Source: Neodothiora populina
Taxonomy: Eukaryota
Direction of reading: 5' to 3'
NCBI RefSeq assembly: GCF_041146345.1
Contig: NW_027191405.1
Location: forward strand, 186,001 to 250,000
DNA: 64,000 nt
Shown: positions 1 through 5,622 of the stretch, piece by piece
How positions within the stretch are numbered: the first letter of the stretch is position 1
Layout: each line of letters opens with the position of its first letter
The notes under the pieces: model-generated
Told to the model about the DNA's origin: nothing
Databases searched by the model: none
The model's input: only the letters and a program-made list of their open reading frames with translations
Translations under genes and position numbers: made by a program

Positions 1-1655
1 CAGGTGTCCATTCTGCTATGGCTTTGTTACTATCTACCTTGAAAGAAGCGCAGGCTATGTTCCCTCACCGATTGTCTGAGCTTCTGTCACAATTACAGGA
101 TGAGCCACTGCTGCGGGGTGAAGCCGTGCGGGCTACATCAGAGCTGAATCTTGACATCTACGAGAGATGGATCGCGGATGATGTTCGAAACTTCACACCA
201 TTCCTGAGACATGACCAGCTCCAAGGCACTCAGGCAACGAAATTAATTCAGTCATGGGCAACTAGTGCAAAGCAGAAATTGCTTGAAGGACTACAGCGGC
301 TTCTTAGCAGTACCCAGGATGCTCAAAAAGTGGTGGCACTACGAAAGGACGTGATCTCAAGGTCACTCTCGGCTAACAAGAAATTGCCTGGTCTTGACCA
401 AGCTGCCTTCTTCGAGGATCTCCGCGCTTGCTTCTCCTCCGGCTTGCGACATATCGCTACTGAGGCAGCTAATGACTTGGTTCAAGTGGCTGATCAGTTC
501 TTGGGCGATACCGCGTCGGTGAACAATGCTACAGAGCTGCTAGACATTTGGGATCATTCGTTGCTCGACCTTGATCTTACCAAGGGTGCTGTGGAATTGA
601 GGGATATGATCACTAATGTCAGTGAGGGAAGGGACAATCGACTACAAGATCTGCACCGCCAACTGAAGTCATGGGCCTCACGCCTGGCCGATGTATCTGT
701 AACAATTAAGACGATGAGAGAAGACAGATGGGACGACGACCTGGAGCTGGACCTGGACGACGACCTCGAACTGAGTGCACCACCGGATCTACTGACGAGA
801 GAAGACCCCAAGTCTTTAGATGATTTGCTCAACGAGCAACGGAACCAGGCACTTACCAAGGTCTACGAGAAGATCCAATCTACCATGTCTGACAATTCGG
901 GTTCGGAGAATCCACCCGCATTCGTTCTGCGACTCCTCCGGGAGGTGGTGCAACACTCCTCGTCGACTGAAACATCCTCTGTTGCGATAGTGAAGCCACC
1001 GCCCTCATTGCTTGAATTATTGCACAATCAACTTGCTCAGCAAGTCATTTCGCAAAATCCGAGCCGGTCATCCCGATTAATAACGTTCACTCGCGCTCCC
1101 GCGATCACTCTCTGGGAGGGGTCGCCTGCACTTCCAATGCAGCCTTCGCCTGCCTCTTGCCGCTTTTTGTACGATACTTGCAAAACAATGGACAAAATTG
1201 GCGTGGATCTCTGGACACCACGTGCGGTCGCAGTGCTGAAGGCTCGTCTGCGCGATTTGGTCGCTGAGACGTTGGACGAGACCTTGTTGGATCAAGCGAA
1301 GGCCAACGGAGCAGAATCTACAGGACAGATCACCAACGGTGCAAGCAACCACGATGTGGCAGCGAACGGGACTTCTGCAGACGCAGAAGTCGAAGAGAAA
1401 GAGGCAGTCGCGTCTACAAAGTCGAACCACGAGTTCCGAAGGATGCCGAAGTTGACACAAGCAATGTACGACGTGCTCTACCTCGAGAAGATATTGAGTC
1501 TACATGAGAAACACGAGGTGACGGCTTTTGACCGTGTGCTGAACCAGCTCCGAGAAAGCCTGCATCTGGAGGAGAGTGCGTGGGAGCGGTTACGGAAGAG
1601 CACTAGCGATCATCACAGGCGGACCTACCTTCTCTTCGGTCTACTTGCGGTGTAG
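1..1655 (+). CDS. COG1 / Vps51-Vps67 family Golgi tethering subunit, 5' end outside the window
   Basis: 545-aa helical ORF whose frame stays open back to the window edge. Acidic DDDLELDLDDD patch and C-terminal RTYLLFGLL resemble fungal COG1/Vps51-family proteins (from recall). Confidence 0.65.
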   Translation, partial: GVHSAMALLLSTLKEAQAMFPHRLSELLSQLQDEPLLRGEAVRATSELNLDIYERWIADDVRNFTPFLRHDQLQGTQATKLIQSWATSAKQKLLEGLQRLLSSTQDAQKVVALRKDVISRSLSANKKLPGLDQAAFFEDLRACFSSGLRHIATEAANDLVQVADQFLGDTASVNNATELLDIWDHSLLDLDLTKGAVELRDMITNVSEGRDNRLQDLHRQLKSWASRLADVSVTIKTMREDRWDDDLELDLDDDLELSAPPDLLTREDPKSLDDLLNEQRNQALTKVYEKIQSTMSDNSGSENPPAFVLRLLREVVQHSSSTETSSVAIVKPPPSLLELLHNQLAQQVISQNPSRSSRLITFTRAPAITLWEGSPALPMQPSPASCRFLYDTCKTMDKIGVDLWTPRAVAVLKARLRDLVAETLDETLLDQAKANGAESTGQITNGASNHDVAANGTSADAEVEEKEAVASTKSNHEFRRMPKLTQAMYDVLYLEKILSLHEKHEVTAFDRVLNQLRESLHLEESAWERLRKSTSDHHRRTYLLFGLLAV

Positions 1656-3206
1656 TCTGAGTATCAACATGTATAATAACATACCAAGTCACAATTTTGC
1701 TCCAGTTCTTGACCCGAAGAAGAAGAAGACCACATATCCACAAATGACCCAGCTGCACTACTCGTGGGGCCATGGTCAGATGCATTTATGTTGGAGTCCA
1801 AGTATCCTTGTCATTGTCATCTGGTCGGAACCCGTGAGGTGGTAAGGGTTGCGATGCTCCTTGGCAGTGTACCTTTGGCCATTCGTGAAGCGAAGCGCGT
1901 GCTTGACCTCTACGTGTCCTCTCCTTTCTGTGCATCCAGTAATATAGGTAGCGTACCGTACCTTAATTACAGATTCAATCCTTCATAGGAAATCAGAATC
2001 AGTCCCCGAGGAAGCGCAAGGACTGTCGATACAGCACGTAGATTGCATTCATAATACATATTAGATGGAGAAGAGATAGTATACCACTGAATCACTTACT
2101 AGCTGCTGCAATTGACGCCTTAGTCGCTTTTCCCCACAGATCGGTGACGTACTGCAACTGCTTTGACCCTCGGTTTCTGTGCTTTTGATCTCGGGGTAAG
2201 CGTGTGTATGTCGGGCACTGGCACTGTAATAGAACTGTCCGGTGTGTACAGGCTACGAAGGAAGCGAGGACCCCCCCCCCTGTTCTTTTTTCACCCTTCG
2301 CCCTTGACCAAACGCCGATCCGTTTTGGCAGCAACGTGCGGATCGAATGTGCCTACAGGGCCGCCCAGTATCTAGTATGACTTACATTGCGGCAAAGAAG
2401 CCACGTCGTCCGCCCTTTTGGACTCTGTACTTGCACAGCACATCGCATCTGCTTACCTGGGGCAAACACCCGACAGTCTGTTTCGCGAAGCTAGTACTGT
2501 AGTCCTGCAATCACACTTTCTCCATCCAACCTCTTTATTCCTAGCATCCAATCGTCATCCTCGTCGTCGTCAATTGACTGATCGCTCTCTATCTCTCCAC
2601 TCCCTTCGCCAGCTCCACCCCCGGACTGCTCCTATTGTTACCCGAAACGCGGCCGGCGAGAACAACCCTCTCCTTATCCCCCGATTCACGATTCAGGATT
2701 CAGGGAGCTTCGTCTCAGTTGTGAGGCTTAATTCCTTATCAACAAGGCCAAGTCCAGCCAGAGCCAGAGTCGTGGTTTGATTGTGACAAGCCATCCTTTG
2801 TCGCGTGTTTACCCTTTCCATCCCATCAGAGTTTGGTCTATTCAAAAGGTGTACTGTTAGTGTGTGCATTTCTTGCGTGTGAATTGAGTTGATCTGATCA
2901 TTTGATTCCTCACGACCGCCTGCCCAATTATTTGTTATTCCATCCCCGCTTGGTGTTGTCGGCCCCGTCTGGCTGATATACATCGTAGCGAGAGTAGCTC
3001 CGCTCTCCACTCACCGCCGCCGGCTACTACTGCTACTAACAGAAAGTGCTAAAGTGCTGGACCCCCAGCCAACCTAGCATAGCTGTACCCACTTTGCTCT
3101 GACCTCATCCAACTTTCTGTTGGCGCCGAGGCAGGAAAGTGCTGGAAGCGCGGTTGATTGTTGCAACAACAGCTCTCCATCCTTTATAAAGGACAATACC
3201 GCCAAG

Positions 3207-5622
3207 ATTCCCGCCTACAAAGACCGCAATTCTGCAGACATCCCCTTGCATCCGCTGACCTCGCCATCATCTCGCCAATCACATCGTCGGTCCACGTCTG
3301 GAGCAGGTGTCACTTCCTTGGACGAAAAGCGCGGCCGCAGTCGCCGCTCTTCGATCGTCTCGGATTCCGAGTTCAGTCTCTGGAGCGAAACCGGCGACCT
3401 TGTAGACCAGTTCGCCGACCACGACGGACACGACTCTCGAGACTCGTCAGAAGAGGGCGCGCCTCCGAGACGACGCACGCGAAGTCAACAGAAGAGAGTC
3501 CGCTACGCCAAAGGTACAGCCTCAGGCAGGGACAAGGAAGCTCCTCTCGTTCGAAGGAAAGAGGACATCCGCATACCGAGTCCTCCGCCCAGGAGAATCA
3601 ACAGAGCGGAACGCATACTCGCCACAATCATGGCTCCCAATGATGGCCCCTCCCGTATACACGGCCTACATGGCAAGAAGTTGCTGTACGCGCCAGACAA
3701 AGTCCCTGTTTCTGCTGTGTTCCCTGGCTGACATACATGCCTCAGCTACTTCACCAGTGTGTTTGTGTCTCTAGGAGTGTTTGTGTTTGGTTACGACCAA
3801 GGTGTCATGAGTGGTATCATCACGTATGTTTGAAGCAAAAGCCCTTTCCCATATGCAGCAGGCTTGCTTACTCGTCCATTCTGCCTTAGCGGTCCTTACT
3901 TCAAGGACTATTTCAACCAGCCCAGCCGTGCCGAGATCGGTACCATGGTCGCCATTCTGGAAGTAGGCGCCTTTATTTCGTCCTTGTCCGTAGGCAGAAT
4001 TGGTGATGTGCTGGGTCGTAGGCGCACTATTCTCTACGGATCTCTCATCTTCATCATCGGAGGCGCATTCCAGACTTTTGCTACCGGCATGCCTATGATG
4101 CTTCTCGGAAGAATTGTTGCTGGTCTCGGTGTAGGTGCCCTGTCGACCATTGTCCCCGTCTACCAATCCGAGATCTCACCTCCTCACAACCGCGGTAAAT
4201 TGGCTTGTATCGAGTTCTCGGGCAACATCATCGGTTACGCTGCCAGTGTGTGGGTTGACTACTTCTGCACCTTCATCAACAATGACTGGGCCTGGCGTGT
4301 GCCTCTGCTCATGCAATGCGTCATGGGTGCTTTGCTCTGCGGAGGAAGTTTCTTGATCTGCGAATCTCCCAGGTGAGGCTTATAGGTTCCGTTGACCGCC
4401 TCTGCTATTGCTAACAAGATCTAGATGGCTGCTCGACAATGACCATGACGAAGAGGGCATCGTGGTCATTGCCAATCTCTACGGCAAGGGCGACATCCAC
4501 AACCCCAAGGCTCGTGACGAGTACCGTGAGATCAAGATGAACGTCCTATTGCAGCGACAAGAGGGTGAGCGTTCCTACAAAGACATGTTCAAGCGATACC
4601 ACAAGCGCGTCTTTATCGCCATGTCCGCTCAGGCTCTGGCCCAGCTCAACGGTATCAACGTCATTTCCTACTATGCGCCTCTTGTCTTTGAACAAGCTGG
4701 TTGGGTAGGTCGTGACGCTATCCTGATGACCGGAATTAATGGTATCACGTACTTGGCCTCGACGATCCCGCCATGGTATGTAGTCGATACTTTGGGTCGA
4801 CGATTTATTTTGTTGTCTGGCGCATTGGTCATGATCGTCGCTCTCTCGGCGATATCATACTTTATATACATCGACATACACTGGACTCCGCGCTTGGTCG
4901 TTATTTTCGTCATGATCTACAACGCCGCCTTCGGATTTTCGTGGGGACCGATTCCTTGGTTGTATCCACCAGAGATCTTGCCTCTCAGCATTCGTGCCAA
5001 GGGTGCAAGTTTGTCGACTGCTTCGAACTGGGCTTTCAATTGGCTCGTGGGAGAAATGACTCCTATTCTACAGGATCTGATCAAGTGGAGGCTGTATCTG
5101 CTGCACGCTTTCTTCTGTGCTGTTTCTTTCGTGGTTGGTAAGTTTGTTCGCAACCTACTCTGTATCCCTTTACCGTCACGGCTGTGATAGCTAACAGCAA
5201 GAACAGTCTATTTCATCTACCCCGAAACAGCAAACGTGCGCCTCGAAGACATGAACTCGATCTTCGGAGACGCAACGACAGTAGCGCCGACCCCACAGAC
5301 CCTAGCAGAAGCCGAGTCCCTGTTCTCACGCTCGCCAGTCCCATCTCTTCGCCTCGGCGACGGCGGGCACGGCGCACCGCAGGACGCAAGCATTCCCGAT
5401 CTGGACATCGACCCGCCCGCTCTCGAGGTCAGCGCAAACGGCAGACCAATGTACAGTGCAGCGAGCAGCAGGAACGGAGACGCAGGCGAGGGCCTCGGCG
5501 GCTGGATCAGTAATCTGGTCAAGAAGGGCAGTGTCAGCGGGGGTTTGGGCGGTGCGAACAAGGATGGTGGAGCCGCTGGTGGAAGCGGGAAATATAGACG
5601 GATCGGACAAGACGAGGATTAA
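3207..5622 (+). CDS. MFS sugar porter (hexose transporter-like); first ATG at 3630, probable non-AUG start at ATT 3207
   Basis: Introns 3686-3745, 3824-3889, 4373-4424 and 5138-5206 (GT-AG with CTRAC-like branch sites) give a continuous frame. Motifs FGYDQGVMSG, GRRRTI, VPVYQSEISPP, CESPRWL, QLNGINVISYY, WGPIPWLYPPEILP and YPET. Confidence 0.93.

Follow-up and report, generated by a model that had tools for sequence, protein, structure and literature searches.

An AUU codon as the probable start of a tailed sugar transporter isoform in Neodothiora populina and related Pezizomycotina

Described non-AUG starts and the transporter locus

Conserved non-AUG starts of translation are known, and few of them are well documented in filamentous fungi. 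In mammals, according to work attributed to Tzani et al. in 2016, an AUU upstream of the annotated AUG reportedly gives rise to an N-terminally extended proteoform of PTEN. Here we describe a predicted sugar transporter gene of Neodothiora populina, located on the plus strand of a stretch of 64,000 nucleotides (nt) from contig NW_027191405.1 (positions 186,001 to 250,000, assembly GCF_041146345.1). This whole stretch is referred to as the window, and its first letter is position 1 in all coordinates given below. Comparison with orthologous loci makes it likely that an AUU at 3207 starts a 722-aa isoform of the transporter and that leaky scanning to the AUG at 3630 gives a second isoform of 581 aa. 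In the aligned loci, this AUU/AUG arrangement is conserved beyond Neodothiora populina, across several classes of the Pezizomycotina. In the literature searched, which covered few subscription journals, non-AUG initiation was not reported for this transporter family.

Fungal cpc-1 offers the closest described parallel, as its N-terminal extension is started by conserved near-cognate codons including AUU, the use of which was shown experimentally (Ivanov et al., 2017, mBio; PMC5487733). The same article also describes replacement of the AUU by AUC or AUA in some species, and names G at +4 as important for the initiation context. The transporter gene is like cpc-1 in that it belongs to the Pezizomycotina, carries an in-frame extension before the annotated AUG, and combines conserved near-cognate codons with a good -3 context. 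However, in cpc-1 several near-cognate codons are candidates and the extension overlaps two regulatory AUG upstream open reading frames (uORFs), whereas the transporter has a single codon at the edge of conservation and its leader in the window contains no AUG. Furthermore, the cpc-1 product is a bZIP factor with experimentally established codon use, while the gene described here encodes a membrane transporter whose codon use is predicted from sequence comparison.

A second parallel comes from Cryptococcus, where ArgRS starts at an AUU in the context cccaccAUU and LeuRS at ACG/AUU (Wallace et al., 2020, NAR; PMC7049704). As in ArgRS, the AUU of the transporter stands in an otherwise strong context (accgccaagAUU), and two isoforms would be made from one mRNA. 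In basidiomycete yeasts the ArgRS extension serves as a mitochondrial targeting signal and was detected by ribosome profiling (PMC7049704). The transporter extension, recognised from its sequence, instead forms a tail of 127-166 residues on a polytopic membrane protein and has no evident targeting function. The article also names the N. crassa sugar transporter homolog rco-3/sor-4 as regulated by a uORF (PMC7049704). It is likewise a fungal sugar transporter of the major facilitator superfamily (MFS) whose expression is shaped by its 5' leader, but it is a different gene, repressed via an AUG uORF rather than extended from an in-frame non-AUG start. Typical sugar porters have a short N-terminus, in contrast to the conserved 127-166-codon extension of this clade.

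The ATT codon and the conserved extension

The elements of the initiation region in the window are as follows.

2380..3206, plus strand: ATG-free stretch, putative long 5' leader and possibly part of the promoter (ATG scan, shuffles)
3075..3077, plus strand: in-frame stop TAG closing the transporter frame upstream (open reading frame scan)
3198..3206, plus strand: initiation context ACCGCCAAG, -9 to -1 (ortholog base counts)
3207..3209, plus strand: ATT, proposed near-cognate (AUU) start of the long isoform (ortholog codon conservation)
3207..3629, plus strand: N-terminal extension of 141 codons, 423 nt (homology; ratio of nonsynonymous to synonymous substitution rates, dN/dS)
3630..3632, plus strand: main ATG in the context ACAATC-ATG-G, short-isoform start (conserved in 54/54 representative loci)

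A preliminary description of this DNA had reported that no plus-strand ATG occurs between 2380 and 3629, where about 20 would be expected. The ATG scan of the window confirmed this, as consecutive ATGs were found at 2377 and 3630 with none in between, and the 1094 ATGs of the window (0.0171 per nt) predict about 21 per 1250 nt. No other ATG gap in the 64-kb window is as long as this one of 1253 nt; the runner-up measures 478 nt, and CATs (minus-strand ATGs) are at most 609 nt apart. Dinucleotide-preserving shuffles of 2380-3629 contained 12.3 ATGs on average and at least 4, those of 2380-3206 (827 nt) contained 10.4 on average, and 0/5000 shuffles were ATG-free in either case. The ATG desert at 2380-3629 is real and not due to chance. 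For the extension alone (3210-3629, 420 nt), the absence of ATGs is not significant within the window (shuffle mean 1.67, with zero ATGs in 649/5000), and the significance of its lack of ATGs comes only from the orthologs. The 827-nt ATG-free stretch before the ATT suggests a long leader; this length is specific to Neodothiora populina when compared with the orthologs. The transporter frame was also found to be stop-free from 3078, as previously described, and remains open to 3731, with the ATT at 3207-3209 flanked as ACCGCCAAG-ATT-CCC.

Orthologous loci were obtained by scanning metagenome contigs with a narrow alignment, which gave 289 pattern matches, 91 confirmed relatives and finally 80 loci that were kept. 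Of these, 72 could be anchored at both the Ile of 'IPLH' and the main Met, while the others were dropped because the contig started within the extension or an anchor was not found (L046, L052, L054, L057, L059, L076, L078, L080). Collapsing at >95% identity over the first 240 nt left 53 loci, which together with the window make up the 54 representatives used throughout.

Protein searches were carried out with P0001, the stop-free translation of 3078-3686 in which the ATT encodes I44, and with parts of the frame. The P0001 searches returned 112 longer proteins and 136 cluster representatives; the named proteins among the 112 are nearly all Dothideomycete MFS transporters of ~700-770 residues. 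In the best-stretch alignments the query starts cluster at residues 38-52, around I44, and conservation begins at 'x-I-P', the Ile of which is the ATT codon. Upstream of this edge the annotated N-termini share neither length nor sequence, and several of the records are marked partial. The conserved motifs of the extension are xIP, (R)RPANIPLH, FSLWSDTGDLVDQ, QKRVRY and RKEDIxIP..R.I..AE.ILA.IM. An alignment of 32 N-termini placed the same tail, 'xIP' edge and internal 'IM' also in four non-Dothideomycete classes, namely Lecanoromycetes, Leotiomycetes, Sordariomycetes (including Podospora, Fusarium, Colletotrichum, Trichoderma, Neurospora) and Eurotiomycetes (Penicillium).

The window translation of 3207-3629 alone matched residues 22-159 of the annotated ortholog P0002 with 46% identity (E 3e-25) and the Podospora homolog with an E value of 3e-9. 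A protein search with the 43 codons at 3078-3206 found no ortholog homology, the best match (E 0.12) being to an unrelated region. From the ATT equivalent to the main ATG the frame carries no stop or frameshift in 54/54 representatives, with extension lengths of 127-166 codons, and across 152 ortholog pairs of 60-92% identity and dS below 2 the dN/dS of the extension reaches at most 0.47, with a median of 0.156. On these comparisons, the extension at 3207-3629 is coding and is under purifying selection in the main frame. Pfam matched no family to the 141-codon extension. From the acidic, basic and Ser-rich motifs conserved in it, a cytosolic tail with a regulatory role may be supposed, by analogy with yeast nutrient transporters, in which N-terminal tails control endocytosis. 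The preliminary description had suggested a sensor-like tail with PKA sites, a role that is conjectural.

The same data bear on whether Neodothiora populina may use AUG 3630 alone, with the upstream frame reduced to an untranslated leader or a still-open relic. The extension in the window is among the more divergent, with at most 62% identity to any match and the EDPL motif absent, AUU is a weak start, and annotators placed the start of N. crassa XP_956491.3 (565 aa), the best-curated ortholog, at the internal AUG. Nevertheless, the window's 141 codons are in frame, stop-free and recognisably similar to P0002, purifying selection acts in frame across the orthologs, and the window has kept both the ATT and its context, so that we regard exclusive use of AUG 3630 as improbable.

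Indications that the extension begins at the ATT also come from the codon itself. At the edge of conservation, 51/54 representatives have ATT, two have ATA (L018, L031) and one has ATC (L064), while A is found at -3 in 53, C at -4 in 51 and C at +4 in 46. Other conserved Ile columns are mixed (ATC 43/ATT 7/ATA 3; ATC 26/ATT 16/ATA 12; ATA 31/ATC 13/ATT 8), and all remaining Ile codons of exon 1 in the representatives amount to 218 ATC, 66 ATT (17%) and 96 ATA. As synonymous Ile codons vary freely elsewhere, the ATT is held at the nucleotide level, beyond the needs of an internal Ile codon. Information content is highest at -4, -3 and +1 to +5, with weaker third codon positions downstream, and no codon periodicity is seen upstream of the ATT in the 54 representatives. 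None of them (0/54) has a contiguous in-frame ATG upstream of the edge codon, and the nearest in-frame stops lie as close as -15 (L012) and -21 (L008, L032, L068). The 141-residue extension that had been proposed to start at the ATT is supported by these comparisons, since the ATT and its -4C/-3A are conserved and coding conservation begins there. The description of the context as ideal fits the C at -4 and the A at -3 but was overstated, given the C at +4. A sequencing error of ATT for ATG was ruled out, as ATT is also present in 51/54 representatives.

The three loci without ATT (L018, L031, L064) form a small '...KSRLPANI(R/P)LH' lineage with ATA, ATA and ATC in its place. The single ATC locus has C at -3 and GTG as the next codon, and the start codon may have shifted in this lineage.

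Other near-cognate codons also have to be considered as starts of the extension. CTG 3099, CTG 3117 and TTG 3120, which had been put forward as alternatives, are indeed present in frame upstream of the ATT, as are ATC 3240 and CTG 3255 downstream, and AUU is generally outperformed by CUG as a near-cognate start. However, the three upstream codons are not conserved and fall within 3078-3206, the stretch without ortholog homology, in which many orthologs carry stops. A pyrimidine occupies -3 at CTG 3117 and TTG 3120 and, in part, at TTG 3246 and CTG 3255, with ATC 3240 (G) as the exception. With the ATT being the only codon conserved along with its context, we see a slim chance that one of the others is the start; minor extra use of CTG 3099, which has G at -3, is conceivable.

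Transcripts, probable leaky scanning and the leader

Eight of the ortholog contigs, 2.4-2.95 kb in length (L011, L014, L035, L048, L058, L060, L068, L079), are mRNA-like and carry an unbroken frame of 695-723 codons from the ATT to the stop. All eight begin upstream of the ATT, with leaders of 121-490 nt. Comparison of four of them with genomic loci of near-identical sequence (L035/L032, L068/L070, L048/L053, L058/L051) showed that intron-sized blocks of the genomic copy are missing in each and that each is collinear with the genome from the contig start through the ATT (212, 189, 490 and 124 nt of leader) without a junction. The ATT is preceded by an in-frame stop in 8/8 contigs (-21, -21, -39, -69, -81, -81, -87 and -156), and upstream ATGs open only uORFs of 1-37 codons, all of which end before the ATT. 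As the exon that carries the ATT also contains this in-frame stop before it, initiation of the tail at an AUG is impossible in these ortholog contigs. In L035 and L068, the stretch from the stop at -21 to the conserved residues contains a single near-cognate codon, the ATT. For the window itself, run X1 (probably DNA) yielded a contig at 3460-3748, genome-collinear into intron 1, and another at 3905-4118; both are short and uninformative on transcripts.

The alternative of an ATG-bearing exon before 2380, spliced into 3078-3206 so that the extension would begin at an ordinary AUG, had already been raised in the preliminary description and was checked in the orthologs. It would be compatible with the 43 codons that stay open upstream of the window's ATT, with the many public gene models that take the upstream-exon route, and with a conserved ...CAGCC ~15-20 nt upstream of the ATT that is readable as an acceptor. 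Yet the four spliced ortholog contigs remain genome-collinear and junction-free for 124-490 nt upstream and through the ATT, several orthologs have in-frame stops at -15 and -21, and the N-termini predicted by the public models agree in neither length nor sequence. In the window the closest ATG is located 830 nt upstream of the ATT, and an upstream exon would leave the retention of ATT as ATT and the -4C/-3A context unexplained. We consider this origin of the extension very improbable.

ATGs are depleted on both sides of the ATT. Across the 23,244 nt that separate the two starts in the 54 representatives there are 4 ATGs, one in frame and three not, and the window contains none. When counted in 100-nt bins, 2 ATGs were found from -100 to -1 against 48.5 expected from base composition, and the four bins after the ATT held 1, 1, 1 and 10 against 41-66 expected, the 10 being mostly the main ATG of loci with shorter extensions; the bin holding the main ATG has 217. 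The next two bins upstream of -100 held 30 ATGs against 45.8 expected and 37 against 51.8, and no depletion was seen beyond -400, such that the depletion upstream of the ATT in orthologs is strong to ~100 nt and partial to ~300 nt. In the ortholog loci that reach an upstream ATG (n=45), the nearest one lies 49-457 nt before the start codon. The main ATG has an equivalent in 54/54 representatives, with a one-codon offset in seven, and its context includes a purine at -3 in 48/54 and G at +4 in 46/54. Out-of-frame ATGs would be harmless if all ribosomes began at the AUU, and their near absence implies that many ribosomes scan through; the short form would then predominate over a minor long form.

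An AUG-free leader, a fixed near-cognate codon, an AUG-free interval and a strong AUG are together what the scanning model predicts for dual initiation. Scanning ribosomes would meet a leader without AUG, and a fraction of them would initiate at AUU 3207 in its conserved C(-4)A(-3) context to produce the 722 residues of the long form, with its conserved 141-residue cytosolic N-terminal tail. The remaining ribosomes would scan the following 423 nt, apparently kept AUG-free in every frame by selection, and initiate at the strong-context AUG 3630, giving a 581-residue transporter with an ordinary short N-terminus. The tail would most likely regulate the trafficking or activity of the transporter. 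Leaky scanning to two isoforms, as originally suggested, is strengthened by the conserved lack of ATGs between the starts and by the absence of a usable upstream AUG in the mRNA-like contigs, and the alignment of ortholog leaders that had been recommended as a check revealed the coding signal, the ATG depletion and the conserved near-cognate codon alike.

The short form could also come from a second transcription start in or just before the extension, with the AUU still starting the long form. A TATAAA at 3185-3190 on the plus strand, 17-22 nt before the ATT, would suit such a start, but it is not conserved in the orthologs, which carry the GGGCTGCTCC motif at that place. The mRNA-like ortholog contigs, moreover, all start upstream of the ATT, and so few ATGs in all frames between the starts are a prediction of scanning from upstream of it. 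A second transcription start as the source of the short form has, in our judgement, a fairly small chance of being correct.

A motif of the form (T)GGAG..GGGCTGCTCC(N4-5)CAGCC is found in the ortholog loci ~30 nt upstream of the ATT (about -45 to -15). Its GCTGCTC portion is present in 34/53 loci at 28-44 nt from the ATT, in spacings that fall into the three frames in 19, 9 and 6 loci, and this spread over all frames indicates that the motif is not coding. A small hairpin, GCUG/CAGC or GGAG/CUCC, is a conceivable fold of this motif. RNAalifold predicted a 4-bp stem GCUG/CAGC for the 34 motif-bearing loci of the 53; its pairs are essentially invariant, without compensatory change, and hence uninformative. 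An Rfam scan of 1600-3700 gave no match, and the promoter/terminator scan, built on bacterial consensus sequences, is inapplicable to a fungus.

One group of loci (L004, L005, L007, L014, L016, L020, L022, L032, L034, L037, L041, L044, L067, L068 and others) shares two further leader elements. The first, CAATGTGACCG at ~-119 to -169, has an ATG followed directly by TGA and is thus a one-codon uORF; the second, CCCTGTGACGTGC, has a TGACGT core and lies ~90 nt upstream of the ATT. The CAATGTGACCG element is contained in the mRNA-like contigs L014, L035 and L068, and the window has neither element.

Several points weigh against dual initiation from the AUU and the AUG. The RNA origin of the ortholog contigs is deduced from their missing introns only, and the 54 representatives are interrelated, so that counts over them are non-independent trials. 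Several Neurospora/Sordaria gene models begin at an in-frame Met farther upstream (MVDHARD...). AUU is among the weaker near-cognate start codons, and the base at +4 is C, not the G named as important for fungal contexts. Should the TATAAA at 3185-3190 function as a TATA box, part of the transcripts would begin only after the ATT. The window's copy of the leader motif is degenerate (about 3170-3182). A search for consensus structure downstream of the ATT was negative in 40/54 representatives, a set that does not include the ATA and ATC loci and some others, and the 90 nt after the ATT in the window fold at -5.4 kcal/mol, compared with a shuffle mean of -11.3 (z +2.36); hairpin-assisted initiation of the START type is not indicated by these folds. 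With these points considered, we still hold dual initiation to be likely, and we infer the use of the AUU in Neodothiora populina, the isoform ratio and the role of the tail from the evidence of the orthologs and the window.

Gene product, annotation and significance

The transporter gene at 3207-5622 on the plus strand comprises five exons and four GT..AG introns of 52-69 nt, with an unbroken frame. The predicted product has 722 codons counted from the ATT and 581 from ATG 3630. Beyond the extension, its parts are as follows.

3630..3685, plus strand: remainder of exon 1 (gene model), then intron 1 at 3686-3745 (GTACGC...CAG)
3746..3823, plus strand: exon 2, region of the first transmembrane segment (gene model), then intron 2 at 3824-3889 (GTATGT...TAG)
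3890..4372, plus strand: exon 3 (PF00083 match), then intron 3 at 4373-4424 (GTGAGG...TAG)
4425..5137, plus strand: exon 4 (PF00083 match), then intron 4 at 5138-5206 (GTAAGT...CAG)
5207..5622, plus strand: exon 5, with the stop TAA at 5620-5622 (gene model)

The gene model shares 77.5% identity with the annotated ortholog P0002 over 697 residues and 74.5-78% with orthologs generally over 550-697 residues. Pfam PF00083 (Sugar_tr; cut-off 22.3) matched both exon 3 (E 5.6e-37, 128 bits) and exon 4 (E 1.2e-49, 170 bits), and the ortholog P0002 covers positions 3-452 out of 452 of the profile. By family match, the product is a sugar-porter MFS transporter (PF00083). The orthologs are labelled in their sources as MFS monosaccharide transporter, hexose transporter, STL1 or STP1, and N. 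crassa XP_956491.3 as 'high affinity glucose transporter'; these substrate names are source labels and not assay-based.

Upstream of the gene, an open frame of 550 stop-free codons (3-1655, plus strand) extends beyond the window's left edge and is closed by TAG at 1653-1655. Pfam found no family above cut-off in it; the top match, YbaB_DNA_bd, reached 18 bits where the cut-off is 25.5. From the stop of this frame to 2377 there are ten ATGs, and then none before 3630.

Judged against the alignments, public annotation of this family is systematically wrong, with >100 orthologs having invented N-termini, being marked partial or lacking the extension. The last applies to the N. crassa reference XP_956491.3, which begins at the internal AUG. 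For the same gene, further records from Neurospora and Sordaria have 781-816 aa and two different upstream starts, MVDHARD... and MPGGSWRALG..., which may be invented or real (the Neurospora proteins concerned are P0436, P0438, P0439, P0435 and P0406). Several orthologs bear the label 'Ribulose bisphosphate carboxylase large chain', evidently a propagated misnomer, and others are fused to neighbouring genes (e.g., PF00443, PF03641, PF00153); this mislabelled or fused set includes P0006, P0038, P0050, P0099, P0281, P0314, P0318, P0388, P0389 and P0395.

The signatures described here are unusually clean: a single AUU is fixed, as is its -4C/-3A context, and an AUG-free interval leads up to a strong AUG. 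Their spread over several fungal classes makes the locus a candidate natural reporter of start-codon stringency and leaky scanning. For transporter biology, two isoforms are predicted that differ by a conserved cytosolic tail. More tentatively, and with somewhat less than even confidence, the fixed AUU/AUG pair may be a clade-wide device of the Pezizomycotina that splits one mRNA into tailed and untailed transporter, in a ratio set by start-codon stringency and perhaps by the leader motif GGGCTGCTCC..CAGCC. If so, the unusually long ~800-nt AUG-free leader of Neodothiora populina would add to this device, and the state of the translation machinery would directly tune the share of transporter that carries the regulatory tail.

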